Origin: an uncultured Clostridia bacterium
Lineage (GTDB): Bacteria > Bacillota > Clostridia > Christensenellales > Borkfalkiaceae
Direction: 5' to 3'
Assembly: GCA_964468085.1 (NCBI GenBank)
Contig: CAYXTN010000002.1
Coordinates: forward strand, 12-64,011
DNA: 64,000 bases
Shown: positions 1 to 22,283 of the stretch, in pieces
Layout of the letters: each line of letters opens with the position of its first letter
How positions within the stretch are numbered: the stretch's first letter is position 1
Position numbers and translations under genes: made by a program
Notes under the pieces: generated by a model
Told to the model about the DNA's origin: nothing
The model's input: only the letters and a program-made list of their open reading frames with translations
Database searches by the model: none

Positions 1-3000
1 GGCTTTTTGCAGAGCATTGAGGGTATATGGGATTATACCGCAGGTGGATTAGCTGACCTTTTCGGGGCGCACGATTGGGCGGAAAAGCAAATTGCTAACG
101 ATTGGGTAAATTACGGACACGCAGACGAGTGGTTTAACCCGTCTCAGGGGTGGCAAGTTGCAGGCGATGTTATGGGCGGTATCGGTACCAGCTTGCCTGC
201 TATCGCTACGGTTGCCGCTGCCGCCGCCATAGCGTACTTTTCGGGCGGCACTCTGGCTCCTGTTGCGGCAGGTATGATAGGCGGCGTTGTTGCAGGCTTA
301 GGTGCCGCAGGTACGGCGACGAAAGAGGCTTACAGGGAGACAGGACAGCTCACGGGTAAAGAGTGGGGCTACGGTACCCTCTCTGGCTTTACTGAGGGCG
401 CAATGGAGGGCGTTTCTGACGCTATCGGCTTTGGTGTCGGCTCCATTGCCAAAAACCTTGCAGGGAGCACGGCGAAAGCGAGCGCAAAAGCTGTCGGCAC
501 TCAGGTTGCAAAATCCGCCGCCCGTCAGACTTTCGGAAAGACGATATTAAAGAGCTTTTTAAGTGAGGCGTTCGAGGAGGGCGTTCAGGAGTTGCTGGAT
601 CCCGTATGGAAACGCATTACTTACGATCCTAACGCCGAAAACGCTACTTTCCAACAGGTCGCTTATGCGGCTCTCGTCGGCGGTCTCAGCGGCGCAATAA
701 TGGGCGGTGCAGATGTCTCCGTGCGCAATGGTATTAACTATTTCCACGGCAGTAAAGTAAACGCAAACGGCGGCGTAAACGGCGTTATAAGCCTCGCAGA
801 GGAAATCGCTCGTACAGAGGGCGTAAATCAGTCTGGTAACGCTCAGGTTGAGTTTGTCGTTGATACTCTCAACGAGTTACAGGAAAGCCTGAAAAGCACG
901 GGCGGAGAGGTTAAGACGGCAAAACAGAAAATGCTTGTCGGTATGCTCAGTAAAGCAAACACAGCAGCTCCGCTTTCCATCGTCGTACATCAGAACGCAG
1001 ACGCTATCATAGCAGACGCAGAGACTACCGTAAAACGCCTTAACGACATCGGCTACAAAACCTCTAAGGGCGAGGCTATTACCGTTGAAATGCTGTTAGA
1101 CGGCGTTAAAGGTGAAAGAGGTACCACTGAATACCGCAAATCTATCTCGGAGGCAATGCGTACAAATGAGGCGTTGCGTTCCGTCGCTGTTATGTCGGCG
1201 GCAGGACAGCTCAATATGGACGCTGCCAGATTCCAGCAGTCCACGCTCAGGGGCGAGCAGTTGTTTAATCAGTCCGACCTCAACCACTTTGTCGAGACCG
1301 CTACGGAGGCTCAAAAGCGTGATGTCGGAGAGCGTCTTGGTATTACGGATTGGGCTACCGTTACGGCGGACGAATTAAAGAGCCGTATCGTAGAGTTTTC
1401 TACCAACGGCGGTATGGATCAATACATAAACGAGCGCAACGAGATTAAAAAGCTCTCCCAGCTTGAAATATCGAAAAAGGGCTTGCCTAAATATGTGGGC
1501 TCTATCAAGCAGGACGGAGCCGTGCGCTATAAGTTTGGCGACGCAAGCGTGGCTATCGTCAAGAACGGCGACACCTACCTTGTGTACGACTACGCAAACG
1601 ATGTTGCCTCTAAGCCTCTTACAAAAACGGAGGCAAACAGGGTTATAAAGGAAATCTACGCCGCCTCCGTACAGAGTGCGACGGATTCCAACATACAGAC
1701 AAAAGCACAACAGGAGACGCAACAGCTTGACACTTTCGCTCGTGAGAATATCCCCGACTATAAAAAGCTCGTGGGAGCGCAACAGCAGGCTGTCAGACAG
1801 ACGCTGAGGCAGGCGAGAGCGGCAGGTGTGAGTGAGGCAGACCAAATCCTCTACGCAAGTGTTGCGGCTCGCTCAGGCATAAATATCGAGTTTGTGAGCG
1901 CAGAGGAGCTGGGCGAAAAAAATGCAGACGCTGGGTATAGGCTGAGAGATGGTAAAATCCTTGTCAACCGTGAAATAGCGAATAATCCTAAGGCTCGTAC
2001 AGCAGCGAAAATCCTGTTGCACGAGTTTACTCACGGAATGATACACAGAGGGTATGCCGTAAAGGGTAAAAAAGGCAACCAACACCTCGAAAACAAAGTG
2101 CTCAATGACTTTTTCACTACCGCTATAAAGGGCTTGTCCGTAGAGCAACAGGTGGAGATTTTAACGCCGTATATCGAGAGGCACGGTGTAAAAATGCAAG
2201 ACTTTCTCGATGGCAAGGTTGACATAAGCGTTGATACCTATATTGAGCTCAGAGAGGAGCTTGCGGCGCACTTTGTAGAGAGGGAGCTCGGCAGCTCCGC
2301 CGCCCTGCAAAGGATTATCTCTGACAAGCCCTCGTTTAAGGATAAACTGCTGTCGTTCCTGAAAAGAGCTAAGGCGGATTACAGCTCAAATGAGAAATTG
2401 TCTCGTGCGGCAAACGCTTTGCTCAAAAAGTATCAGAAATTCTTTAATCAATACTCGTCGCAAAACAGGTTTAGTCCTACTGTTGCGAGCGACCTTTCCG
2501 CTTATCAGCGCACCCAGACGACGGAGGCGGCGGAGACAAGGCTTGCGTTGTCCGCCTCCGAGTTTGAGCATACACTTGATAATCTCGATTCTTTCAAATC
2601 GGTTGACGAAATAAAGTCTTATTTTTCTGATGTTCACGAAATGATTAACGGAGAATATTACGGCTCTCCGCACACAATGGCGGAACTCAACGAGCAAATA
2701 AGAAAGAGAGCCGAAAAGGTTATGCAGGCGTTAAACCTCGAAAAGGAGGCTATATCTCAGTGGCGCAAAAAGCATAGCCATAAGAAAAAAATCGACCTTA
2801 CAACTAAGGCGCAAATTGAAGCGATAGATAAGCAGTACCAAAAAGCCATTAAAAACAATGACCTTGAAACGGCAAGACGCTTAGTGGAGCAGATGGCTAT
2901 TCAAAAGGGTTATTCCGTAACGGATTATAGGATAGATCATAGAGCACCTTGCGCTGACGGCTCTAACGCAAGCCTTGACGATGTTAGTTCTATGTTTGGA

Positions 3001-6000
3001 GAGGATATTTACAGCGACAAGGCGGCTCGGTATTTTGGTACCTATGAGGGTTTTGACGCTGAGAGTATTCGTTATATTCAGCAGGCGAAAGGCAAGCCTA
3101 ATGGCACCGTAATAGCGTATAGGGCTGTTCCTGTCAGTGTAAAGTCAGACCAGATACGAAACGGGGATTGGATAACGCTAACCCGTCAATATGCGGTCAA
3201 CCACGGCGAGTCAAATATTATCGGTAATTATCGCATAATCCACAAAAAGGTTAGAATAGCCGATGTTTACACTAATGGAGACTCTATACACGAGTTTGGA
3301 TATGACGACGGTAAGCAGTATTTTTATAGAGATACCGTCAATTTTAGAAAACTTGCCGATACTATAACCTTTGACGACGAGGGAAATCCCATCAGACTCA
3401 AAGATAGGTTTAATTACAGGAATAGTGATATAAGATACGCTCTTTCGCCTATGACGGAGGAGCAGTACCGCTTTGTGTCTAAGCTCTCTGTTGTTGAGGC
3501 AACGCAGACGGAAAATAGCCGTTATAGTGTTTACTGTGAAAACAATAGCGGTCTGTTGGAATATGAGGCAAGCGGTTTAACCTACGAAAAGCTGGCAAAG
3601 TATTTTGGCGGCGAACTTGCTACGGAGATAACGCTCAGAGCAACCGAAACAGGAAAGACGGTTAAAGTTTTGCGTGATACTCTTGCGCCTATCGTTGATA
3701 GATATAAGTCATTAAGCAATATCACGCCAGATATTTATAAAATAGCCAAAAAGGAGTTTGGTACCACAACCAATGTGCAGGTCGCAGGATATATCAACCT
3801 CGACGGCACTATGCTCGACTTTGGAGGCGGCTACGATTACCGCCTGTTAGATCATAGAGACATATCGTCAATTATGAGTGAATTGTCTGGCACTCAGGCT
3901 ATGAACGCATACATAGCGCAGGGCAACATACGAATAATGCCCGAATCTCCGTCCATCGAGCTTGACTATCAGCACGAGCCGACAGCAAAACAGTACACGA
4001 CTATCCGCAAGGCGTTAGATACACTGCTCGCAAAGTTAGATACTTACGGTAAATTCTATTTGGAATTTAGTAACGCCAACTCCTCTGTTGATAGTAGAGA
4101 GTATGGGCGTAATACACCGACAGGTAAAATCATTTCTGATATTCAGTATTTCTATAAAAATGGAGTATTGCCTCAGCAGTCAGAGCTGAGCAAATTCCGT
4201 TACGCCTTGCCGACAAGCGATTCTCAGGGGCGCACTCTTACGGCGGAGCAGAGAGCATTTTTCAAGGACACTATGGCTGTGGACGAGAACGGGCACCTGT
4301 TGACGGTTTACCACGGCACTCGTAGCGGAGAATTTACTGTATTTGAGCACGGGAAAGGTACAAAAAATGACGCAGGTTGGCTCGGAGAGGGATTTTATTT
4401 CTACGGAGACGAACACGAGGCGTCAATCTATGCAATGGGCGGCGGCAGGGTAGTTGAGGCTTACTTAAATGTAAAAAATCCCTATTACGCTACCGAGCAA
4501 GAATTTAATAGACTTGCTGAACTTGACAACGAGATAGAATCTCGCAAATTTTCCGATTCTCTCAAAGCTGAGGGCTACGATGGGGTATATTACAACGGTG
4601 ATTTACGGCAGGAATGGGTTGTTTTTGATTCTAACCAAATTAAGCTCACAAGCAATGAGAATCCATCGCTTAACGCTGATATACGCTACGCTTTACCTGA
4701 AACCGATTCGGCAGGTAAAACTCTTTCCGAACAGCAACGCAGATTCTTTAACGATAGCAAAATCGTTGACGAGCAGGGGAGATTACTGCCTGTTTATCAC
4801 GGATCCCCGAAAGCAGGTTTTACTGTCTTTAATACGAGCTTAGAGGGCTCTTATTTCACCGCAGATGAACAGTATGCTCAGGAATATGCGAGAGGCGACA
4901 AGAGCAAAGTATATTCGGTATATTTGAACATCAAAAAACCGTTTGATACCCGTGATACCGCCGCCCGTAAGATATTCGAGAAAGAGTTTTACGGAAAATG
5001 GGGCAACGGTGCTCCTCTAACCGCCAGAGGTTTGCTTGATTGGACGGACGGCGCAGATATGTACGACTTTTTGCAGGAAAAAGGGTACGACTACGACGGC
5101 ATTATAATTGACGAGGGCGGCGTTCCTGACGCAAACAGCGGAGTGCGTGATAGGGGTATAAGCTATGTCGCTTTCTCTCCTGAACAAATTAAACAAACAA
5201 CAAACCTTGCGCCGACCAGTGATAGCGACATAAGGTATGCGCTCAATACCAAAACTGCCTCCGATGGCAGAAAACTTACAGCAAAACAGCGTCAATTTTT
5301 CAACAATACGGTTGCGGTTGACAGCGACGGTAAATTAAGGGTGGAGTACCACGGTACGGACGCTCAGTTTTACACTTTCCGTAATCAGGGGCAGAATAGC
5401 AGGCAGATGTACGGCGTAGGATTTTACTTTACGCCTTACGAGGACGAGGCAATGGGCTACGGCAAGCGTGTCGTTAAAGCCTTTCTCAATATTCAGCAGC
5501 CTATCATTTACGGCGAAAAGCATATTACAGAGGCTCAGTGGGCGCAATACCTTGACTACTGCAAAGAGCACGCAAACGAATATGTGGAAGGCGTATGGAA
5601 AGGTAACAGCATAACATCTTTCGATTACAGAGATGTTATAGATGTCAAAAATGATAGCGTCCTTGTTACGGAGTTTGTAAACCACATATCTGGCGGCAGT
5701 GGCGATGTTGCAGTTGCGTATTTGCGTATGCTTAGAGATAGTTTAGGCTATGATGGCATACAGCGTGGAGAGTACCTTATTGCATTTACGCCTGAGCAGA
5801 TTAAAAAAATAACGAATACCGATCCTACCAGCAGTGTTGATATGCGCTATGCGCTTTCCAATCACGACGCTAACCCTGAAATAGATCCTACCGAGTCCGA
5901 CAACAGCGGAGCCATCGGCGGATTAACCAGAGGGCAGAGAGCTAAGTTTGTGGCGAATAATACCAAGTTTAAGGTGTATTCTAAGCTGGACGCAGTGAGC

Positions 6001-9000
6001 GTCATTGACTCTATCGTTGCCGAGCGGCTTACGCTCCGAGACGGGCGTTATGAGGGCATATTAAGCGGCAAGAATAGGGCAGAGGTAATCGAAAAGCTGT
6101 TTACTAAGCTCAACAGTACACCTGAGGGCTACCGTATAGGTGTTGCGTTGGATATTGCCGACTACATCATAAACAACGCAATCCTGACCGATATGTACGA
6201 GACCTATAACGACGACTCGTATGCTATGGGTGTTTTGTCGGTTATGCGCCACTATATGCACGGTATGGATTTAAGCGGCATACAGAGCGAGATTCAATAC
6301 AAATTCGATAAGAAAAACAGCATAAACCTCGTCTGGGGAGCCAAACAGGACGGTATTGCACCTGATGTGGTTGCTCAGGAGTTAGAGGGCTACGGAATAC
6401 ACATCGAGGCTATAAACGAGGCAGAGCAGTTTTTTGAAATGCTGGAACTCTACGAGAGCGCAAAAGAGCAGGTAAACAAAAGAGTTGAAAAAATTATGCT
6501 TACCGCCATCGGTAGCCAGAGCGAGATTGAGCAGTTAAGGCAGCAGATCGCTCGTGATGTGCTTATGGCATACGACAAAAAAGGTACCAAGTCTAAGTAC
6601 GCTAAGCTCGTTGAGCAGTACACCAACAAAATAGCTAACCTCAAAAAGGATCTGAGCACGGCTTACAAGCGCAACACGCTCACCAACAGAATAATCGACG
6701 GGGCGGCTTATTTGCGTGATATAGCCACTAAGCGCAATTATGTGGGGGCGGAGATTTTTGCGGCTCCTGAACTTACATCGTGGCTCAAACAGCTTGGTAA
6801 GATAAAATACCGCTCCGACCTGCGCAAGTCTGGCGTTCGTAAAATCCTGCTCGACTACGGGCTGTTTTACAACACGAATAATGCGCTGCTGTACGACGAG
6901 AATCCCGACCTGAGCTACATCGACAATAATGTAATCGACGCTCTTAACTTTATCAGACAGAACGCCCTCAGCACTAAGCCTCTTTCGATGGAGGAATTGC
7001 AGGCGGCGGAGATTATTATTGCCTCGGCAAAGCACCTTTTCAATAACTACGATCAGGTGATTATTGAGGGTAAAAAGGCGAAAATTACCGACCTTGCCAC
7101 TGAGGGCAACGAAATAATCAAAAAGACTAAGAACAGGACGAGCAAGGGCTTTTTCAACCAGATTTACGGCGTATTCAACAAAATAATCGAGCCTCGTGTG
7201 GTAATAAAATCGTTGGAGAACTTTAACCCTAACGGCATACTTACACGAGCGTACAACGAGGTTACGAGGGGCGAGACGGAGGCAGGACTACTTTACATCG
7301 AGCTCACAAACGACATCGACACTTACATTAAGCAACACAGGCGTTTCAAAAATCGCCTCAGCTCGCAATATGTAACGGTTGCAGGAGCCGAGCTTACCGT
7401 GGGGCAGGCAATATCCCTCTACGAACTTTCTAAGCGTCCGCAGGCGCAGGAGGGTTTGTACGAGTCTGGATTTAGCTATATCGACAAAAAGGGCAGTAAG
7501 CAGACCGCTCACATTACGGAGGCGGATATTACTGCGATGTACGACGCTTTCACGGACACCGACAAAGGATTTATCGAGCTCGTAGAGACATTTTTCAATG
7601 TTGCAAGTAAGCAAGTCAAGACTGACGCTGATATGCAGATTTTGGGCTATACAAACACCTCAGAGGAGTTTTATTATCCCATCAAGCGTGATAGCGGAAC
7701 GATTGCAAAAAATATCACCGACGCTCGATCCATAATGTCGGATTGGGCGAATGTGTATAACTTTTCTTTCAACAAAGATGTTAAGACGGGAGCCAAAAAT
7801 AAGCTCTTTGTAACCGATGTTTATAGCGTCCTTACACGCCACGCAAAGCAGCTCTCGACCTACGCCAGAATGACGGTGCCGCTCAAAAATTTCAGCCAGA
7901 TATACGCAAAGAATATAGGCGATAAGACGAATGTCGTAAGCATACGCAACACCATCAATGAGCAGGTATGGGGCGGTGCAGAGGGCTATTTAAGCAAGCT
8001 ATTCTCCGATATTCAGGGCAGAGCTACCAGTAGCTCCATCATTGAGAAAATGAGGGGCGCATACGCCAAATACCAGCTCGGCGCAAATCTCAAAGTCATT
8101 GTTTCTCAGATAACATCTTATCCGACAGCAGGCATAATGCTCGATACGGGCGTAATGGCTAAGGGCTTTGTTATGAAAACGAATTGGGCGGCGATGGATA
8201 AATACTGCCCGTATGCTCGTGTGCGTAACTACGAGCGTGGTATAGTCAAGGCGGAGGGCGTTATCGACAAAATAGGTAAGGTTGGCGATGTACTCACTAA
8301 GCCTATACAGTGGACGGATAGATTTACGATAGGTAGGCTCTGGAATGCTTGTCAGTTGCAGGTACAAAAAGACACGGGGCTCAAATTCGGCTCCGTGGAG
8401 AATATGCAAAAGGCAGGCGTTATGTTGGAGGAGGTTATTCGCCTCACGCAGCCGAACTACACAAACACGGAACGCTCGGAGCTTATGCGTTCAGACAGCG
8501 ACCTCGTAAGGAGCTTTACGATGTTTACCTCCGTGCCGCTCAAACAGCTTTCGAGGCTCGTTGAATCGTTTGGAGAGTTTAACGCCCTGCGTTCGCTCAT
8601 AAAGAGCGGAGACACAGACGCTACGCTCGCTCAGCGTTATAAGCTGGCAAAGAAAAAGCTGCGCAGGACGCTCGCCTCCGTAACGGTTGCAAACCTGATG
8701 TATGTGCTTGTCGGACAGTTTTTCAAATTCCTGTACAACAATATGGCAGAGGACGACGAGGAGGGCAAGGTTACGGCAAAATCCGTATTCCTTGATATGC
8801 TCAAAGACTTTGGCAGCACGACGATAGGTATGCTCCCCATCGTAAGGGATATATACAGCTATTTCGTTGACGGTTACGAAATTAACAGCTTTACGGCAGA
8901 TATGCTCAACAGCATAATCGGATCCACAAAATCGTTATTCGAGCTGGCGCAAAAGGCGGCAAGCGGAGAGGAGATCTCCACGCAGGATTATATGTCGATT

Positions 9001-9888
9001 TTCCGCAATTCGATTTACGCCATAGGGCAAGTTACGGGCATACCGTTTAGGAATATCAATAACACCATTACGGGGCTTGTAAAGCGTTTCAGCCCGTCTG
9101 CGGCGTACTCTTACACATCGCTTTTCTACAACCATAAGTACAGCACCGACATAAAGGACGCTCTCAAAAAGGGCGACTATGAGCTTGCAGAGACGATTAT
9201 GGGAATGATGTTGAAAGACGATAGGACGGGCGGTTTAAGCAGTAAGGCGACGAGAAAGCTCATTGAGTTGTACGACGCAGGGTTTACCGTTCTGCCTAAG
9301 AGCATAGGCGACACACTCACATACGAGGGTGAGACAATCCAGCTCACGGCGGCGCAACGGAAAGAGTTTAAGACGGTGTACAGTCAAGCAAACGCCGAAA
9401 TCGAAAAGCTGGTAAACAGTGCAGAGTTTGCGTCTCTCCCTGCCGAACAGCAGGCTAAGGCAATAAAGCTCCTGTACGACGCTTATTACAGCAAGGCGCA
9501 AGCCACCGTATTAAAGGTGCCGACAGACAATAAAATTATTATGCTTAACAGCGCAATATCCGCCTCCGTGCTGGCTACTCATTTGGCGGCAATATCCACC
9601 ATCGAATCAGACACCGACAAAAAGGGTAATGTAATCAACGGCTCCAAAAAGGCTAAGATTATCAAGTATGTAATGGCGCAAAAGCTCTCGATGGCGCAAA
9701 AACTGTTGCTTATACTTGCCTTAGGTTATACTATCAAGGACGGCGATATAAGGGGTGTTTCCGCCGCCAAAGCCAAGAGTACAGTTGCTCGTTACATAAC
9801 CAACCTTAAACTCTCGAAAGAGGAAAAAACCGCCCTTGCCGAGAAATGCGGCTTGACGGTAAAAAACGGACGGATATACGCCAGATAA
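1..9888 (+). CDS. Giant polyvalent-type virion/effector protein, more than 3,290 aa and 5'-partial because the ORF is open at the window edge. It has a Gly/Ala-rich hydrophobic N-region, a zincin-like HExxH domain, several effector-like modules including three tandem ART-like modules, and a long helical C-terminal region.
   Basis: There is a single uninterrupted frame-1 ORF from base 1 to the stop at 9888. An HEFTH motif lies at 2020-2034. Five [DS]x[IFM]RYAL linker motifs occur at aa 1143, 1398, 1560, 1743 and 1947. Three modules each carry YHG[TS]..F[TY][VT]F, then G.YF[YT], then GYDG[VI]. The gene sits immediately upstream of the capsid module. Confidence 0.85.
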   Translation, partial: GFLQSIEGIWDYTAGGLADLFGAHDWAEKQIANDWVNYGHADEWFNPSQGWQVAGDVMGGIGTSLPAIATVAAAAAIAYFSGGTLAPVAAGMIGGVVAGLGAAGTATKEAYRETGQLTGKEWGYGTLSGFTEGAMEGVSDAIGFGVGSIAKNLAGSTAKASAKAVGTQVAKSAARQTFGKTILKSFLSEAFEEGVQELLDPVWKRITYDPNAENATFQQVAYAALVGGLSGAIMGGADVSVRNGINYFHGSKVNANGGVNGVISLAEEIARTEGVNQSGNAQVEFVVDTLNELQESLKSTGGEVKTAKQKMLVGMLSKANTAAPLSIVVHQNADAIIADAETTVKRLNDIGYKTSKGEAITVEMLLDGVKGERGTTEYRKSISEAMRTNEALRSVAVMSAAGQLNMDAARFQQSTLRGEQLFNQSDLNHFVETATEAQKRDVGERLGITDWATVTADELKSRIVEFSTNGGMDQYINERNEIKKLSQLEISKKGLPKYVGSIKQDGAVRYKFGDASVAIVKNGDTYLVYDYANDVASKPLTKTEANRVIKEIYAASVQSATDSNIQTKAQQETQQLDTFARENIPDYKKLVGAQQQAVRQTLRQARAAGVSEADQILYASVAARSGINIEFVSAEELGEKNADAGYRLRDGKILVNREIANNPKARTAAKILLHEFTHGMIHRGYAVKGKKGNQHLENKVLNDFFTTAIKGLSVEQQVEILTPYIERHGVKMQDFLDGKVDISVDTYIELREELAAHFVERELGSSAALQRIISDKPSFKDKLLSFLKRAKADYSSNEKLSRAANALLKKYQKFFNQYSSQNRFSPTVASDLSAYQRTQTTEAAETRLALSASEFEHTLDNLDSFKSVDEIKSYFSDVHEMINGEYYGSPHTMAELNEQIRKRAEKVMQALNLEKEAISQWRKKHSHKKKIDLTTKAQIEAIDKQYQKAIKNNDLETARRLVEQMAIQKGYSVTDYRIDHRAPCADGSNASLDDVSSMFGEDIYSDKAARYFGTYEGFDAESIRYIQQAKGKPNGTVIAYRAVPVSVKSDQIRNGDWITLTRQYAVNHGESNIIGNYRIIHKKVRIADVYTNGDSIHEFGYDDGKQYFYRDTVNFRKLADTITFDDEGNPIRLKDRFNYRNSDIRYALSPMTEEQYRFVSKLSVVEATQTENSRYSVYCENNSGLLEYEASGLTYEKLAKYFGGELATEITLRATETGKTVKVLRDTLAPIVDRYKSLSNITPDIYKIAKKEFGTTTNVQVAGYINLDGTMLDFGGGYDYRLLDHRDISSIMSELSGTQAMNAYIAQGNIRIMPESPSIELDYQHEPTAKQYTTIRKALDTLLAKLDTYGKFYLEFSNANSSVDSREYGRNTPTGKIISDIQYFYKNGVLPQQSELSKFRYALPTSDSQGRTLTAEQRAFFKDTMAVDENGHLLTVYHGTRSGEFTVFEHGKGTKNDAGWLGEGFYFYGDEHEASIYAMGGGRVVEAYLNVKNPYYATEQEFNRLAELDNEIESRKFSDSLKAEGYDGVYYNGDLRQEWVVFDSNQIKLTSNENPSLNADIRYALPETDSAGKTLSEQQRRFFNDSKIVDEQGRLLPVYHGSPKAGFTVFNTSLEGSYFTADEQYAQEYARGDKSKVYSVYLNIKKPFDTRDTAARKIFEKEFYGKWGNGAPLTARGLLDWTDGADMYDFLQEKGYDYDGIIIDEGGVPDANSGVRDRGISYVAFSPEQIKQTTNLAPTSDSDIRYALNTKTASDGRKLTAKQRQFFNNTVAVDSDGKLRVEYHGTDAQFYTFRNQGQNSRQMYGVGFYFTPYEDEAMGYGKRVVKAFLNIQQPIIYGEKHITEAQWAQYLDYCKEHANEYVEGVWKGNSITSFDYRDVIDVKNDSVLVTEFVNHISGGSGDVAVAYLRMLRDSLGYDGIQRGEYLIAFTPEQIKKITNTDPTSSVDMRYALSNHDANPEIDPTESDNSGAIGGLTRGQRAKFVANNTKFKVYSKLDAVSVIDSIVAERLTLRDGRYEGILSGKNRAEVIEKLFTKLNSTPEGYRIGVALDIADYIINNAILTDMYETYNDDSYAMGVLSVMRHYMHGMDLSGIQSEIQYKFDKKNSINLVWGAKQDGIAPDVVAQELEGYGIHIEAINEAEQFFEMLELYESAKEQVNKRVEKIMLTAIGSQSEIEQLRQQIARDVLMAYDKKGTKSKYAKLVEQYTNKIANLKKDLSTAYKRNTLTNRIIDGAAYLRDIATKRNYVGAEIFAAPELTSWLKQLGKIKYRSDLRKSGVRKILLDYGLFYNTNNALLYDENPDLSYIDNNVIDALNFIRQNALSTKPLSMEELQAAEIIIASAKHLFNNYDQVIIEGKKAKITDLATEGNEIIKKTKNRTSKGFFNQIYGVFNKIIEPRVVIKSLENFNPNGILTRAYNEVTRGETEAGLLYIELTNDIDTYIKQHRRFKNRLSSQYVTVAGAELTVGQAISLYELSKRPQAQEGLYESGFSYIDKKGSKQTAHITEADITAMYDAFTDTDKGFIELVETFFNVASKQVKTDADMQILGYTNTSEEFYYPIKRDSGTIAKNITDARSIMSDWANVYNFSFNKDVKTGAKNKLFVTDVYSVLTRHAKQLSTYARMTVPLKNFSQIYAKNIGDKTNVVSIRNTINEQVWGGAEGYLSKLFSDIQGRATSSSIIEKMRGAYAKYQLGANLKVIVSQITSYPTAGIMLDTGVMAKGFVMKTNWAAMDKYCPYARVRNYERGIVKAEGVIDKIGKVGDVLTKPIQWTDRFTIGRLWNACQLQVQKDTGLKFGSVENMQKAGVMLEEVIRLTQPNYTNTERSELMRSDSDLVRSFTMFTSVPLKQLSRLVESFGEFNALRSLIKSGDTDATLAQRYKLAKKKLRRTLASVTVANLMYVLVGQFFKFLYNNMAEDDEEGKVTAKSVFLDMLKDFGSTTIGMLPIVRDIYSYFVDGYEINSFTADMLNSIIGSTKSLFELAQKAASGEEISTQDYMSIFRNSIYAIGQVTGIPFRNINNTITGLVKRFSPSAAYSYTSLFYNHKYSTDIKDALKKGDYELAETIMGMMLKDDRTGGLSSKATRKLIELYDAGFTVLPKSIGDTLTYEGETIQLTAAQRKEFKTVYSQANAEIEKLVNSAEFASLPAEQQAKAIKLLYDAYYSKAQATVLKVPTDNKIIMLNSAISASVLATHLAAISTIESDTDKKGNVINGSKKAKIIKYVMAQKLSMAQKLLLILALGYTIKDGDIRGVSAAKAKSTVARYITNLKLSKEEKTALAEKCGLTVKNGRIYAR
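2020..2034 (+). other. HExxH (HEFTH) zinc-metallopeptidase signature inside the giant protein
   Basis: The translated context is AKILLHEFTHGMIHRG. It is in frame at aa 672 of the window ORF. Confidence 0.6.
4198..5844 (+). repeat. Three diverged tandem protein-level repeats (4198-4683, 4684-5232, 5233-5844), each an ART-like module bounded by RYAL linkers
   Basis: The three modules align by eye: RYALP.SD..G..LT..QR.FF.D....D..G.LL.VYHG.....FTVF...G.YF.......A..Y......V...YLN[IV]..P....GYDG.......E.....F...QIK. Confidence 0.75.
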
Positions 9889-9924: not shown

Positions 9925-10698
9925 TTATTGGTCGGTTATGTCTCCTTTAATATACCCATTTTCGACACACCATTTTAGCAATATTCGTTTTATAATGTCA
10001 AAATCATTGTTTGGAATAAGAGATACTGTATATTCGTTTATGTATTGAGCAAGCAATTCGATTATTTCAGCCTTTTGGCTTTCAGTAGGTGTTATCCTTG
10101 CATTTTGCTGTATTGAGTCCTCAACAAAACAAATATGATAGAGAGTAGCAGCAAGAACACTGCTTGTGTGTTCGTGTGCTGAAAAGGGGAATTTCTTTAT
10201 TATAGAGGATATTTCAACCTGTATTTTATCCTTGTACACACAAAAGGAATCTTTTAGTCCATAAAGTGTAGATAAATCCTCAGCGCATTTAAGTAATTTA
10301 TTTGCGGTTTTTTCTAACAGCTTTTTGTTTCTGCGCTCTACTGTTTTTTTGCTCGGCTCGTAGTCGTCGTATGTCTGCGGAATGAGCCCGATAAACGCTA
10401 TCACAAAGCCAATACCAAAACATAAACTTTGAAACAGGTACGAAATAAAGCGTAAGTACGGAACGCAGGCGATGGGAAACAGTATTGTGATTAATACTAA
10501 TTCTACGAGAACTATGCAGGAGTAAACGAGCCAAAACGGAAATACCCACCATATCAACAGCCAATACCACCAACCCCCACCGCAAGCGATGTTAAACAAA
10601 AATGGTATTTGCTCCGTAAACATTTGCTTAACTCGGTTTTTGTAGCTTGTTGCTCCCCTTACAGGTATAGGGAAAGTTACGGGGGTTTCCAGCCTCAT
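9925..10698 (-). CDS. Opposite-strand membrane protein of 257 aa with a Trp-rich multi-TM N-terminal half and a soluble C-terminal domain; a moron-like gene
   Basis: A GGAGG motif lies about 9 nt upstream of the ATG; its reverse complement reads atcggaggatttattATG. Hydrophobic segments include GGGWWYWLLIWWVFPFWLVYSCIVLVELVLITILFPIA and LCFGIGFVIAFIGLI. The DNA is clearly more AT-rich than the flanks, and this is the only minus-strand gene in the phage arm. Confidence 0.75.
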   Translation of the reverse strand: MRLETPVTFPIPVRGATSYKNRVKQMFTEQIPFLFNIACGGGWWYWLLIWWVFPFWLVYSCIVLVELVLITILFPIACVPYLRFISYLFQSLCFGIGFVIAFIGLIPQTYDDYEPSKKTVERRNKKLLEKTANKLLKCAEDLSTLYGLKDSFCVYKDKIQVEISSIIKKFPFSAHEHTSSVLAATLYHICFVEDSIQQNARITPTESQKAEIIELLAQYINEYTVSLIPNNDFDIIKRILLKWCVENGYIKGDITDQ

Positions 10699-11197: not shown

Positions 11198-11707
11198 ATG
11201 AAAAACAAAGTTACACAGCAGGACATCGACGAGATATTTAAGAATGGCACTCTGACGGTAGAGACCATCGGAGAAAAGACGACTATGGTGCGTCTGGTTA
11301 CGAAAGAGGGCTATGAGATAATCGAGACCTCGGCGTGTGTCGATAAGGCAAACTACAATGAGGCTATCGGGGCGGAGATCTGCCGCAAACGCATTGAGGA
11401 TAAACTCTGGGCGTATGAGGGTTATCTCCTCCAAAAAGAACTCGCCAAAGACAACACCGCCTGTATGAGTTTCGGAAAAGCTATCGAGGCTCTGAAAGCA
11501 GGCAATAAGGTAGCAAGAAAGGGCTGGAACGGCAAAGGAATTTACCTTGAACTCCAAAAGCCCGACGAGCACTCAAAAATGAGCCTGCCTTACATCTACA
11601 TCGTAACAAACTCGCTCGTATCGGATAATCCCGACGCACCGAGAGGAGTTGTGCCGTGGCTTGCCTCTCAGACGGATATGCTCTGCGAGGATTGGGTAAT
11701 CGTATAA
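11198..11707 (+). CDS. Two-domain phage protein: N-terminal N4 Gp49/Sf6 gene 66-like domain fused to a C-terminal DUF2829 (Tad2-like) domain
   Basis: The RBS reads cggagg. The N-terminal half (ETSACVDKANYNEAIGAEICRKRIEDKLWAYEGYLLQKEL) matches my memory of the Gp49_66 family signature. The C-terminal half (FGKAIEALKAGNKVARKGWNGKGIYLEL...PYIYIV...VPWLASQTDMLCEDWVIV) matches the DUF2829 signature. Confidence 0.75.
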   Translation: MKNKVTQQDIDEIFKNGTLTVETIGEKTTMVRLVTKEGYEIIETSACVDKANYNEAIGAEICRKRIEDKLWAYEGYLLQKELAKDNTACMSFGKAIEALKAGNKVARKGWNGKGIYLELQKPDEHSKMSLPYIYIVTNSLVSDNPDAPRGVVPWLASQTDMLCEDWVIV

Positions 11708-13495: not shown

Positions 13496-14533
13496 ATGGC
13501 AATCGTATTTTCCAAACTTTCGGGCAAGAACGATCCTTTATACGGTAAGTTTGAGCACCCGATTAAGGCAATTATCCAGAACGAGAGCAACGCTCTCGAA
13601 AAGAAAAAGACGCTGCTCGATGTCCTTTACAATGTCGAGAAATCCAACCGCTACGCAGAGACGGTTATGGGGCAGACCGACTTTGACACTTTCCAGAGCG
13701 TCAAAGAGGGCGAGGGCGCAGAAAACGACAGCATAGAGCTGGCGTTCAAAAAGACGATAGAGCATATCGCCTTTATGAAAGAGTTTACCATCACCAAAGA
13801 GATGGCGGACGACGCAAAAACGGGTATGGGTACCAATATGAAATCCAAGCCTAAGGGCTTTGTTCGTGCGTACTACAAAACCCGTACCAAGCTCGCAGCG
13901 TGGGCTCTGGCACACGCCACCGAATCCAGCGGCAAGTTTAACAAGGCACTCGTTGACCTTACCACGGGCGACGGTAAACCCGTATTCCATTCGGCGCACC
14001 CTTACTCGCAGGAGAAATTTAAGAAAAAGACGCAGAGCAACTTTTTCTGTAAGGAGAATATCTGCTCCTCCACGACGGCGTTTGAGGACGCTCTCAACGA
14101 ACTTGCGAACAAAATGCGCAATTTCAGAGACGAAAACGACGAAACGATGGAGTATGTGCCCGACACCATCATTTTGCCCTGCAACCGTCCGAATCTTGAA
14201 AAGATTGCGAAAAAGGTTGTCGGTTCCGAGAGGACTACGGGCACGAACTACAACGACATCAACATTCAGTACGATAATTGGACTATCGTAATTCTTTCGG
14301 GGTGGGAGACTACCGACGACAGATTTATGCTGATGTCGTCCGAGGCAAACCAGCAGCTCGCAGGCTCGATGTTCTACAACCGTGTCGCTCTCGACATCAG
14401 GAGTTACATCGACGAGCATACCCGTAACAACATCTGGAACGGTTACTGCCGTTTCGGTATCGGTTTCACGACTTGGAAACACCTGCTCCTTGCGGTTGAC
14501 GGCAAGAGCGTAACGGGTGCGTCGGCTCTTTAA
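13496..14533 (+). CDS. Putative major capsid protein
   Basis: The RBS reads gggagg. The 345-aa protein follows the scaffold gene and is followed by a strong terminator, which is a typical major-capsid expression context. No signature motif was verified. Confidence 0.6.
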   Translation: MAIVFSKLSGKNDPLYGKFEHPIKAIIQNESNALEKKKTLLDVLYNVEKSNRYAETVMGQTDFDTFQSVKEGEGAENDSIELAFKKTIEHIAFMKEFTITKEMADDAKTGMGTNMKSKPKGFVRAYYKTRTKLAAWALAHATESSGKFNKALVDLTTGDGKPVFHSAHPYSQEKFKKKTQSNFFCKENICSSTTAFEDALNELANKMRNFRDENDETMEYVPDTIILPCNRPNLEKIAKKVVGSERTTGTNYNDINIQYDNWTIVILSGWETTDDRFMLMSSEANQQLAGSMFYNRVALDIRSYIDEHTRNNIWNGYCRFGIGFTTWKHLLLAVDGKSVTGASAL

Positions 14534-19836: not shown

Positions 19837-20886
19837 ATGGTATCTGAAAAGAGCAAAATTTACGGCGTAGATAATGTGGGGCAGTCCACGCCTACGCTTG
19901 CGAGGACGGATAGCGCAATCGGGTTGACGGTAACGGTAGGCACGAGCGAAATCAAAAGCGATTTTGACCGTTGCTACCCGTGGAGCGATATGCACGAGGT
20001 CGTGGACGAGCACGGAAATGTGTTTATCAAAATCCCTAAGTTTTACAGCAGAATTACGAAAAATACCAACGGTACCCATAAGCACCAGCTTTCGGGCTAC
20101 CGTTACGATGGTTTTACCACGCTGTTTGTGGACGGACAGGGCAACGAAATCGACTATGTGCTTGTCGGCAAGTACGAGGCGAGCGGCAGCAAGAGTAGGG
20201 CGTATTCCCAGAAAGGCAAGACCTGTCTCGTCAATATCACTCTGCCTGAAATGCGGACGGCTTGCAGGGCAAACGGTGAGGGCTACCAGCAGTACGACTT
20301 GCTGATAGACCAGATCATTAAAGAGCTGTGGCTTATCGAGATGGCAACTACAAACTGTCAGTCCATTATGTACGGCTACGCAAACGGCAACTCGGCGGCA
20401 GTACAGACGGGCAGAACGGACGGCGTTAAAACCGCCTCTGGCTCCGAGGTAAGCAACACGGACGGCAAACACGCCTGCAAGTACAGAGGCATTGAGAATC
20501 CGTGGGGCAATATCTGGAAATGGGTTGACGGTATCAATTTCCACGACAGCGAAATGTACATCTGCCTCGATCCTACAAAGTATGAATCGGACAAATTTGC
20601 GCCGCCTTATTTCTATGTGGGCAGCTCCGAGGTTGACGGGTATGTAAGCGGCATTGAATACTTTGACAAATTCCCTCTCCTCGGCTTTCCTACTGAGGGA
20701 GACGCAAGCGAGACCACTCATTACTGCGATTACGGCTATGTGGAGCCTGAGGGCGACTATGTGCTGCGTGTCGGCGGTACTTGGAGCGACGGGCTCGATG
20801 CTGGTCTTTGGCTTCTGTATGGTTACGTTGACTCGTCTTTCTACGTCTCGTACTGCGGCGGTCGCCTTTGTTATAAGCCTCTTTAA
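19837..20886 (+). CDS. DGR target protein: variable receptor-binding protein with a C-terminal lectin-fold-type variable region
   Basis: The RBS reads aggagg. The last ~40 codons are the VR, which pairs with the downstream TR. The C-terminal sequence is GGTWSDGLDAGLW...GGR. Confidence 0.85.
   Translation: MVSEKSKIYGVDNVGQSTPTLARTDSAIGLTVTVGTSEIKSDFDRCYPWSDMHEVVDEHGNVFIKIPKFYSRITKNTNGTHKHQLSGYRYDGFTTLFVDGQGNEIDYVLVGKYEASGSKSRAYSQKGKTCLVNITLPEMRTACRANGEGYQQYDLLIDQIIKELWLIEMATTNCQSIMYGYANGNSAAVQTGRTDGVKTASGSEVSNTDGKHACKYRGIENPWGNIWKWVDGINFHDSEMYICLDPTKYESDKFAPPYFYVGSSEVDGYVSGIEYFDKFPLLGFPTEGDASETTHYCDYGYVEPEGDYVLRVGGTWSDGLDAGLWLLYGYVDSSFYVSYCGGRLCYKPL
20761..20869 (+). repeat. DGR variable repeat (VR)
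   Basis: It gives an ungapped 109-nt alignment to 20962-21070. There are 20 mismatches, all at positions where the TR has A. Confidence 0.9.
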
Positions 20887-20896
20887 GAGAGGGATT

Positions 20897-20922
20897 GCTA
20901 AGGGGGAAACCTCCCCCTTAGC
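20897..20922 (+). promoter_or_regulatory. Perfect 11-bp hairpin with a 4-nt loop downstream of the VR; candidate DGR target-recognition cruciform, possibly also a terminator
   Basis: The stem is gctaaggggga / tcccccttagc with the loop aacc. It lies about 27 nt after the VR end. Confidence 0.6.
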
Positions 20923-20961
20923 ATATATTTAATTCAACATTACAGGGTAGTGTGTGCAGCG

Positions 20962-21070
20962 GTGCTGAATGTCGGCGGTAATTGGAACAACAGGCTCAAT
21001 GCTGGTCTTTGGAATCTGAATGGTAACAATGACTCGTCTAACTACAACTCGAACTACGGCGGTCGCATTT
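20962..21070 (+). repeat. DGR template repeat (TR)
   Basis: It is the invariant, adenine-rich (AAY-rich) copy of the VR. It lies in the non-coding gap between the target gene and the RT. Confidence 0.9.
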
Positions 21071-21185
21071 TAATCTTAATTCGGTCTATGAAACACGCAC
21101 AATCCTTGCCCCTTGGCAAAAAACACTTCGATAAGAGGGCGGCTTAGTAGGTTAAATCTCGAAACGCCGTGAGAAGATTAAAAGT

Positions 21186-22283
21186 ATGAAACGGGTAGGC
21201 TATTTATACGAAAAGATGTTAAACCTTGACCTCATAAAGCTGGCGATACATAAGGCAGCTCAGGGCAAGACAACACGAGGCTACATAGCAGTAGTCCTTA
21301 ATGATATTGATAGCTACGCCCAGCAAATAAAAACTATGCTTGAAACGGACAGCGTAACGCTGAGCCCAAACAGGCAAATTACACTCTTTGACCGCTCCTG
21401 TCAAAAGACGAGGATTATAACGGTACCAAAGTTTTATCCAGACCAGATAATACATTGGGTGGTAATGCTCGTTATGGAGCCCATCATAAAGCGTGGTATG
21501 TACCGATATTCCTGCGGTAGCGTACCAAACAGGGGCGGTATGGAGGCAAAACGCTTTGTAGAGCGTGTTATCGAGAAAGACAAAGCTCGGTATGTCGCAA
21601 AGCTGGATATATCAAAGTTTTTCAACAATGTAAAGCCAGCAATCCTGATGTCTCTATTTCGGCGCAAAATCAAAGACGAGCGGTTTTTGGGGCTGATAGA
21701 GAAAATCTTGGAGAACGGCGGCAACTGCCTCCCGATAGGATATTACACCTCGCAATGGTTTAGCAATTTCTATTTAGAGAGATTCGACCACTTTGTGAAA
21801 GAGCAGCTAAGAGTGCAGGACTACATAAGGTTTGTGGACGATATGGTGTTATTCGGCACGAACAAACGAAAGCTCCGCAGGGCTGTCGAGGCAATGAACG
21901 AGTATCTGAAAGCTAACCTCGGCGTGGAACTGAAAGGCAATTATCAGTTCTGGAAAATCCATAGCCGCCCGATAGACTTTGTGGGATTCCGCTTTTACAA
22001 GAACAAAACGCTGCTCAGAAAGAAAATCTACTACCGTTTATGTCGTCGCCTGCGGAATGTCAAAAAGGCGAACTACATCACGGTAAAGCAAGCTCAGGGG
22101 CTGTTGTCTCTTACAGGCTGGCTAACTCACATTAACGGCTTAAAATTCTACAAGGAGAAAATTTACCCGATTGCTCCTAAGTGGAAACTAAAAAGCATAG
22201 TAAGCAAACACTCAAAAAAATTAAACGGAGGTAACATCAATGGCACGGGTATTCAGCAAAGAAAAGTGGCTGCAAACGGCTAA
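21186..22283 (+). CDS. DGR-type reverse transcriptase
   Basis: RT motifs are present: KLDISKFF, LPIGYYTSQWFSNFYL (the DGR-characteristic [LIV]GxxxSQ) and RFVDDMVLFG. It is adjacent to the TR/VR pair. Confidence 0.9.
   Translation: MKRVGYLYEKMLNLDLIKLAIHKAAQGKTTRGYIAVVLNDIDSYAQQIKTMLETDSVTLSPNRQITLFDRSCQKTRIITVPKFYPDQIIHWVVMLVMEPIIKRGMYRYSCGSVPNRGGMEAKRFVERVIEKDKARYVAKLDISKFFNNVKPAILMSLFRRKIKDERFLGLIEKILENGGNCLPIGYYTSQWFSNFYLERFDHFVKEQLRVQDYIRFVDDMVLFGTNKRKLRRAVEAMNEYLKANLGVELKGNYQFWKIHSRPIDFVGFRFYKNKTLLRKKIYYRLCRRLRNVKKANYITVKQAQGLLSLTGWLTHINGLKFYKEKIYPIAPKWKLKSIVSKHSKKLNGGNINGTGIQQRKVAANG

Follow-up and report, generated by a model that had tools for sequence, protein, structure and literature searches.

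A probable phage-type polyvalent protein with a conserved chassis and a variable cargo bay punctuated by a short junction peptide

The MARTX toxins of Vibrio are giant proteins with conserved ends and a variable string of effectors that is swapped between strains, and a cysteine protease domain acting in cis cuts the unstructured linkers between effectors after Leu, thereby freeing the effectors inside the target cell. In polymorphic toxins, short demarcation motifs such as VENN in CdiA and PxxxxDPxGL in Rhs proteins mark the point of toxin-cassette exchange, and in Rhs proteins this motif doubles as a site of autoproteolysis. The category of polyvalent proteins was introduced on computational grounds (Iyer, Burroughs, Anand, de Souza, Aravind 2017, J Bacteriol; PMC5512222). 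Autoprocessing by an embedded metallopeptidase (MPTase) has already been proposed for them, with the processing of P1 DdrB cited (Iyer et al., 2017). Herein, a giant gene is described that occupies positions 1..9888 (+ strand) of a 64,000-nt stretch of DNA from an uncultured Clostridia bacterium (contig CAYXTN010000002.1, positions 12 to 64,011, assembly GCA_964468085.1), referred to below as the window. Its product is probably a phage-type polyvalent protein, in which a chassis encloses a bay of exchangeable cargo modules bounded by a conserved peptide.

Layout and junction peptide of the giant protein

The initial annotation had described a single open reading frame (ORF) that fills the first 9.9 kb and is still open at the window edge. 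Indeed, frame 1 (+ strand) runs without interruption from nt 1 up to its stop codon at 9886-9888 and comprises 3,295 codons. The gene is truncated at its 5' end by the window edge, and alignment with the closest complete ortholog (L026, 3,408 aa) accounts for the missing end, which the annotation had suggested recovering: about 76 N-terminal residues are absent, and the full-length protein has roughly 3,370 residues. Complete orthologs of 3,188-3,923 aa were found in the related loci L021, L010, L011, L026 and L029, and the complete gene encodes 2,999-3,923 aa among relatives from IMG/VR and GTDB.

The chassis consists of a conserved N-block and a conserved C-core, which enclose a hypervariable cargo bay (aa ~850-1948). 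The N-block (aa 1-850; 1..2550, + strand), delimited by ortholog identity, takes in a Gly/Ala-rich hydrophobic region, a helical region and a zincin-like domain. It is 77-89% identical to close orthologs and 39-68% identical to more distant ones, and the ~1,100 aa that follow show no relationship, even among close relatives. A hydrophobic, Gly/Ala-rich N-region had been pointed out in the initial annotation and was recovered, with 32.7% Gly plus Ala in aa 1-260 and transmembrane (TM)-like Gly/Ala-rich segments at aa 57-107 (169..321, + strand) in a Kyte-Doolittle scan, a stretch modelled with low confidence by AlphaFold2 (AF2). The mean predicted local distance difference test score (pLDDT) of the N-block model is 61.7, and searches of Pfam, NCBIfam and PDB sequences gave no match for the N-block outside the zincin-like domain.

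The uncharacterised C-core (aa ~1953-3295, ~1,350 aa; 5857..9885, + strand) was delimited by ortholog identity, by its AF2 model (mean pLDDT 69.7), which is almost entirely alpha-helical, and by a match to phrog_22978 in PHROGs. Its identity to the relatives P0001-P0025 and to the orthologs ranges from 27 to 96% by BLAST (22% in the alignment of profile A3), including 84% to L010, 59-67% to several relatives in metagenome-assembled genomes (MAGs) and ~38% to an IMG/VR group; homology blocks that take in the C-core together with the ADP-ribosyltransferase (ART) modules reach 79-96%. The C-core has no Pfam or NCBIfam match and no PDB counterpart by sequence or Foldseek. In BFVD, 68 matches were obtained at E ≤ 1e-3, all of them C-terminal pieces of giant proteins that come from uncultured phages and carry the names of polyvalent domains. 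A 'sugar phosphate isomerase' match of profile A3 in the PDB was discarded as an artefact of a P0014 cargo domain (PF01261) in the alignment overhang. Each chassis block also occurs with other cargo or alone; the N-block, for instance, is fused to other cargo in P0026-P0054. As a separate observation, the motif V-K-N-G-(D/R/K) appears twice per protein in many family members and is among the most frequent 4-mers repeated within a protein; in the window its copies are AIVKNGDTYLVYDY (aa ~520-527, 1540-1580) and LTVKNGRIYAR at the extreme C-terminus (aa 3284-3295, 9850-9885).

The cargo bay is punctuated by a short peptide of the form x-R-[YF]-[AS]-L, or, more generally, [D/x]-[IMV]-R-[YF]-[AS]-[LI]. 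RYAL itself was found at aa 1145, 1400, 1562, 1745 and 1949, that is, five times against 0.05 expected from composition-preserving shuffles. The corresponding hexamers, all on the + strand, are DIRYAL at junction 1 (aa 1143-1148; 3427..3444), KFRYAL at junction 2 (aa 1398-1403; 4192..4209), DIRYAL at junctions 3 (aa 1560-1565; 4678..4695) and 4 (aa 1743-1748; 5227..5244), and DMRYAL at junction 5 (aa 1947-1952; 5839..5856), which forms the boundary between cargo and C-core. At the boundary between N-block and cargo, a degenerate copy reads ETRLAL (junction 0, aa 845-850; 2533..2550, + strand), and the homologous site is ETRYAL in L029 and L030. The five RYAL linkers of the initial annotation are therefore real and its coordinates are those of the hexamers, whereas the nine-residue peptides listed with them begin one codon earlier. 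Its further claim that a recurring linker separates discrete modules also held, since none of the five copies lies within a domain envelope as defined by profile matches and the motif joins many module families.

In 17 orthologous giants, the motif was counted 48 times against 1.5 expected, with 12 module families on its upstream side and 12 on its downstream side, in 21 combinations. It trails almost every ART domain, with Asp at 82% and Arg at 80% in the ART tail columns; the 12 by 12 flanking families show that it is not merely the tail of that domain. The core R-[YFW]-[AS]-[LIM] was also counted by zone in 67 non-redundant giant relatives. In the middle (cargo) zone, 94 copies were present against 4.9 expected, a roughly 19-fold excess (1.94 per 1,000 aa), compared with 18 against 6.1 in the N-terminal and 22 against 11.7 in the C-terminal end blocks, a 2-3 fold excess (0.28 and 0.25 per 1,000 aa, respectively). 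Furthermore, the Arg, Tyr, Ala and Leu of the five copies in the window are encoded by differing synonymous codons, and the copies have only 11-16 of 27 nt in common, which places selection on the peptide. In the AF2 model, the boundary of N-block and cargo (aa 823-850) is predicted to be disordered.

Comparison with relatives located the points at which cassettes have been replaced. At the DNA level, two breakpoints were examined. In the contig L004, everything from the first codon of junction 4 (nt 5227) onward matches the window at 99.97% identity, and the part upstream is unrelated; L005 matches at 97% identity starting from nt 4618, a point inside the conserved ART tail and ~57 nt ahead of junction 3. 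At the protein level, homology in the N-block ends at aa 846-851 in the closest relatives (L007, L008, L010, L021, L024, L026 and L027); other relatives have this end at aa 823-828 or 873-883. L030 and L033 become homologous to the window protein from aa 1395-1399, beside junction 2, and L010, L011 and L031 share the C-core from aa 1943-1948, beside junction 5. Altogether, block edges at aa 846-851, 1395-1399, 1727-1752 and 1943-1948, seen mainly in closer relatives, adjoin junctions 0, 2, 4 and 5, and further edges at aa 823-828, 873-883 and 1972-1975 lie farther from junctions. As read from these alignments, the junction peptide is a family-wide cassette boundary at which modules are gained, lost and swapped. 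No relevant description of the motif was found in the literature, and the word 'linker' is absent from the defining study of polyvalent proteins (Iyer et al., 2017). The motif and the chassis layout thus appear to be undescribed so far, and they refine a known kind of protein rather than founding a new one.

Zincin-like domain and cargo modules

The zincin-like metallopeptidase core was placed at aa 612-763 (1834..2289, + strand) on the basis of an invariant HExxH plus Glu and of the AF2 topology. H674, E675 and H678 of the HEFTH sequence (aa 674-678; 2020-2034, + strand) and the downstream Glu of an E-L-x-A-H-F-x-E helix do not vary among orthologs, even where identity drops to 21-22%, and HExxH is present in 144 of 146 matches to the zincin profile. 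In the AF2 model (pLDDT ~70-87), a helix at aa 612-625 is followed by strands at 628-632, 644-647 and 652-656, by the helix carrying HExxH at 668-685 and by the helix carrying the Glu at 744-763. With moderate confidence, this predicted topology is that of the zincin core as described by Iyer et al. (2017). The zincin-like domain of the orthologs gave weak matches to zincin families only (Pfam DUF6782 at 7.6e-5, M78 at 1.5e-4, M91, eCIS core, M90 and SprT), and the window copy gave a SprT-like match of 12.8 bits, under the cut-off of 25.6 bits. MPTase-PolyVal of Pfam was not matched at E ≤ 1 by the window protein, nor at E ≤ 1e-3 by 14 relatives, and the PDB profile matches were WLM (E 0.83) and IrrE (E 1.1).

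Because no profile or structure match is significant, the domain is filed as zincin-like and not as a member of a named family; as judged from its conserved residues and its model, it is divergent and predicted to be catalytically intact. Of what the initial annotation had proposed, the HEFTH signature at 2020-2034 and the conserved zincin-like domain around it stand; neither MPTase-PolyVal nor another named Pfam family is matched above its cut-off. An exhaustive profile search with the zincin region returned 1,465 cluster representatives at E ≤ 1e-3 and 162 at E ≤ 1e-30, from which the chassis can be recognised as a large family. Among the best 150 matches listed, most are giants with the zincin at residue ~600-1,100.

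Three consecutive modules had been described as ART-like, and all three exceed the curated gathering cut-off of Pfam ART-PolyVal (PF18760), which is 31.2 bits. Module 1 lies at aa 1428-1555 (4282..4665; E 3.3e-25, 89.9 bits), module 2 at aa ~1590-1738 (4768..5214; E 4.8e-24, 86.1 bits) and module 3 at aa ~1774-1943 (5320..5829; E 1.1e-18, 68.8 bits), all on the + strand; the whole protein scores 203 bits (E 3.6e-60) over three stretches. The active site of ART-PolyVal is H-Y-D, with His in strand 1, Tyr in strand 2 and Asp in strand 5, and one to 12 copies occur per protein (Iyer et al., 2017). In a local alignment that comprised 133 ART domains drawn from 96 related proteins, His was conserved at 86%, the Tyr of G-x-Y-F at 68% (with Phe at a further 17%) and the Asp of Y-D-G at 87%. 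All three window modules keep the His, the Tyr and the Asp of Y-D-G, the last being placed in strand 5 from sequence. The modules accordingly belong with the H-Y-D triad and not with the H-Y-E clade to which they had been compared, and they presumably ADP-ribosylate host targets using NAD+. Nor is their triplication unusual, as had been supposed: up to 12 copies are published, three were counted in 10 of the 96 ART-bearing proteins sampled, and P0076 likewise has three stretches. Recent tandem duplication was rejected as the source of the linkers, given that the modules are 36-43% identical to module 1, that the linker codons differ and that the motif also stands beside non-ART modules.

Two further modules precede the ART series. 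A module resembling a 'ParB C-terminal domain' (aa ~937-1105; 2809..3315, + strand) matches phrog_2579 in PHROGs at E 3.7e-33 and has tblastn matches in 174 phage records, for example mycobacteriophage Cjw1; it has no Pfam, NCBIfam or PDB match. Between junctions 1 and 2 lies an orphan, module X (aa 1149-1397; 3445..4191, + strand), with no Pfam, PHROG, NCBIfam or PDB match and one weak tblastn match, beneath a 'methyltransferase'. In addition, the cargo bays of relatives carry PBECR5, PBECR3, LPD3, LPD23, ART-PolyVal in one to three copies, DUF3990, GNAT and methyltransferase domains, of which all except the methyltransferase are typical of polyvalent proteins. The window protein itself combines a zincin-like domain, a ParB-C-like module, an orphan module and three ARTs, and so holds at least two distinct conflict-related domains in one chain.

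Possible roles of the giant protein and its junction peptide

In the explanation favoured here, the giant polypeptide would be packed into the capsid and delivered with the DNA, carrying enzymes for early infection; packaging or ejection would be the task of the hydrophobic N-terminal helices together with the helical C-core. The most likely role of the junction peptide would be that of a site recognised or cut by the zincin in cis, so that the modules are freed in the capsid or after entry. Packaging in the capsid and injection with the DNA are likely by analogy, as judged from where the gene lies and from T4 Alt, P1 Dar and MuF fusions as precedents. In L021, the giant gene is preceded by TerS, TerL, portal and an unknown 594-aa gene, in that order. 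In the window, the giant gene is followed on its 3' side by a reverse-strand ORF, a Tad2-like gene, a probable scaffold gene, the gene for the major capsid protein (MCP; 13496-14533), an adaptor-like gene and tail genes. The giant gene thus stands upstream of the capsid module, as initially annotated, and virion packaging and morphogenesis genes adjoin it on both sides when the two loci are taken together. Cleavage by the zincin at the junction motif, a putative cut site, is a more tentative proposal that falls somewhat short of being probable. Around the capsid genes no prohead protease could be detected, and the zincin is thus the sole visible protease candidate.

Several observations weigh against this explanation. 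The zincin-like domain lies under every Pfam cut-off, MPTase-PolyVal included, and the top Foldseek matches of the N-block model, to anthrax lethal factor, are not significant (E 0.17-0.5). The virion RNA polymerase (vRNAP) of N4 carries an MPTase yet is packaged unprocessed (Iyer et al., 2017), so having a zincin does not imply cleavage. No packaging domain of the MuF (Phage_Mu_F), N4-vRNAP or DarA type was found in the window protein at E ≤ 1, and MuF is absent from the listed families of the relatives as well; packaging therefore rests on gene position and analogy. The core motif is missing from the middle zone of 28 of the 67 giant relatives, and copies behind ART domains were also seen in short metagenomic fragments, which may or may not stem from zincin-bearing proteins. 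Genes with the C-core only (L001) or the N-block only (L024) occur in bacterial chromosomes with no virion genes nearby, and the model leaves both unexplained; these half-chassis genes may be prophage remnants, satellites or domesticated copies. Finally, breakpoints at the motif would equally be expected if it were merely a tolerated joint or one produced by microhomology recombination. A MuF fusion was considered as the identity of the protein and rejected, since there is no Phage_Mu_F match and only the gene position is equivalent.

The junction peptide might act without being cut, as a docking or targeting linear motif by which the modules are anchored to the chassis, the scaffold, the portal or the inside of the capsid, or are guided in order through the exit channel, with the polypeptide delivered intact; such a motif would be like the T4 capsid-targeting sequence, but present in several copies. 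Selection on the peptide, a setting that looks exposed and the specificity of the motif for the cargo bay are all compatible with it, and N4 vRNAP, ArdC and TraC1 are transferred unprocessed despite their MPTase (Iyer et al., 2017). Such docking is nevertheless considered improbable, as it would leave a strictly conserved catalytic HExxH...E in the same polypeptide without a role and would call for a hypothetical docking partner; moreover, tethering would hamper enzymes that have different targets, a point raised in favour of processing by Iyer et al. (2017). Alternatively, the motif could be mainly an evolutionary joint, at which cassettes are swapped by microhomology or by a phage recombinase and the peptide itself is biochemically idle, comparable to the VENN or DPxGL motifs. 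The L004 breakpoint, which falls exactly at the first codon of DIRYAL, the L005 breakpoint in the conserved ART tail just upstream of a junction, the many block edges of several relatives that adjoin junctions and the 21 different pairings of upstream and downstream modules are what such a joint would produce. DNA that shares 11-16 of 27 nt and differs in synonymous codons is, however, a poor substrate for homology and places the constraint on the peptide; moreover, any flexible linker would tolerate recombination without a conserved sequence, and the breakpoints examined at the DNA level number only two. An idle joint is given little credence.

A different emphasis would make the protein chiefly a structural ejection or internal-core protein of a phage without a tail tube, with a function comparable to that of T7 gp16 or of the ejection proteins of P22. 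The hydrophobic N-terminal helices and the C-core would then form a conduit across the envelope, the cargo would be accessory, and the zincin would act on the host envelope or on host proteins instead of on its own chain, a possibility consistent with the effector role that Iyer et al. (2017) allow for MPTases. This would suit the TM-like Gly/Ala-rich helices, the retention of a huge all-helical C-core where cargo is absent (L028, P0003), the lack of a recognisable tape-measure protein and the weak match to the podovirus SU10 adaptor. It finds no structural match to any solved ejection protein and leaves the junction motif unexplained, and as the leading account of the protein it is rather unlikely, although it is compatible with a packaged, cargo-bearing polyprotein and does not exclude it.

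The reading of the protein as a packaged polyvalent protein can be carried one step further, to the motif as a dedicated cassette code of a very large family of polyproteins injected by gut phages, at once the cut site of the zincin and the boundary of effector exchange. This combined role is put forward with reserve and must be regarded as doubtful. If true, it would give phages an equivalent of MARTX autoprocessing, and sequence alone would suffice to predict effector repertoires and the products of cleavage across at least 162 clusters at E ≤ 1e-30 (1,465 at E ≤ 1e-3). The locus leaves the category of polyvalent proteins unchanged and offers a concrete sequence rule for where such polyproteins are joined and possibly cut. 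The elements of this rule are a peptide enriched in the cargo bay, conservation at the peptide level, swap breakpoints, and a conserved zincin with intact catalytic residues in the same chain.

Distribution, neighbouring genes and described systems

The chassis is abundant in gut Clostridia phages (Christensenellales), and the hosts appear to be Christensenellales, as represented by Christensenella MAGs and Anaerocaecibacter muris. Megablast of the giant gene against the phage collection gave no match, and the MCP of the window matched at 26-28% identity only; the lineage is therefore not among the deposited phages. Partial copies were also observed. In the cultured isolate A. muris CLA-AA-M11 (L028, 9296-13501), a prophage-like region carries upstream of its capsid genes a gene of only 1,401 aa, in which the remnant of a truncated ART is followed by a GRRYAL junction and then by the C-core, with no N-block within 10 kb upstream, which suggests that this prophage copy is degraded or rearranged. 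On a 94-kb ENA scaffold (L001, 10001-13663), a 1,220-aa protein consisting of the C-core only, 82% identical, is encoded between rpoD/trmK/NIF3 and lipase genes, beside a 'Sequestin' gene. In the MAG GCA_910589015.1 (L024, 10001-13837), a 1,278-aa protein with N-block, LPD3 and PBECR5, 77% identical, is encoded in a small island with RHH, YqaJ and DUF1351 genes.

Several features of the window lie outside the giant gene. Directly after it, a lone ORF of 257 aa on the reverse strand (9925-10698) has no family match and is kept in the two near-identical contigs L004 and L005; in L026 the same place holds a reverse-strand ORF of 155 aa, whose homology was not checked. The ORF looks like a moron, given the different-sized ORF at this place in L026. 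Between the giant gene and the capsid genes, a 169-aa fusion (11198-11707, + strand) joins Phage_gp49_66 (PF13876, E 3e-21) to a Tad2-like Thoeris anti-defence domain (PF11195, E 7e-23) and is likely a sponge for defence signalling nucleotides. The phage had been described as lacking a tape-measure gene. Indeed, no tape-measure family was matched by profile in the giant protein or in scans of the window genes, and the claim rests solely on this absence of matches. The giant protein itself was rejected as the tape measure, because its gene lies between portal and capsid genes and no such profile matches it.

Farther downstream, a diversity-generating retroelement was found at 19837-22283. A tail protein gene (19837-20886) ends, on its 3' side, in the variable repeat (20761-20869) of this element, its template repeat (20962-21070) is 82% identical to the variable repeat, with mismatches at template adenines in the part checked, and its reverse transcriptase (21186-22283) matches phrog_1423 at E 5.8e-87. 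A long same-strand run of genes (~27378-50206, + strand) resembles glycan or nucleotide-sugar biosynthesis and includes an amidotransferase/asparagine-synthase-like gene (phrog_13807, E 5e-270), a nucleotide-sugar epimerase, an aminotransferase and a gene resembling a heptose-phosphate kinase/adenylyltransferase. This run represents either host DNA next to a prophage or a large glycan module carried by the phage.

Among described systems, the closest are the phage-type polyvalent proteins (Iyer et al., 2017; PMC5512222). They share with the present protein a giant chain of several conflict-related domains, ART-PolyVal in one to many copies, PBECR and LPD domains (here in the orthologs), an embedded zincin and a gene located among head-morphogenesis genes, and packaging, injection and autoprocessing have been predicted or proposed for them. 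In contrast to them, no MuF, N4-vRNAP, DarA-N or portal fusion was detected here and the zincin is unmatched by MPTase-PolyVal, and their published description contains neither a fixed arrangement of N-block, cargo bay and C-core nor an x-R-[YF]-[AS]-L junction. Capsid-packaged enzymes that are injected with the DNA, as predicted here, are also represented by T4 Alt and the T4 internal proteins and by P1 DarB and DdrB, and include an ADP-ribosyltransferase; T4 gp21 and P1 DdrB, the latter cited by Iyer et al. (2017), offer examples of proteolytic processing at short consensus sites. T4 Alt differs in that it is a single-domain ART of the R-S-E clade, with a separate prohead protease, an N-terminal targeting peptide and no series of cassettes. 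T7 gp16 and the P22 ejection proteins of short-tailed phages are likewise large, internal and mostly helical, leave the capsid with the DNA and, in the case of gp16, have an enzymatic domain, whereas they show no detectable similarity in sequence or fold and are not multi-effector proteins.

Beyond the phage particle, the nearest working parallels to the junction are the demarcation motifs of polymorphic toxins and the linkers between MARTX effectors. Polymorphic toxins are alike in placing a short conserved peptide at the point of cassette exchange; they carry one C-terminal toxin per protein, in contrast to the cargo series found here, and use another delivery route with unrelated motifs and folds. 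The MARTX toxins, in turn, share the conserved ends, the variable series of effectors and the embedded protease, with cleavage being hypothesised for the present protein. They differ in being secreted bacterial toxins directed against eukaryotic cells, in using a cysteine protease activated by inositol hexakisphosphate instead of a zincin, and in having no sequence relationship to the chassis described here.

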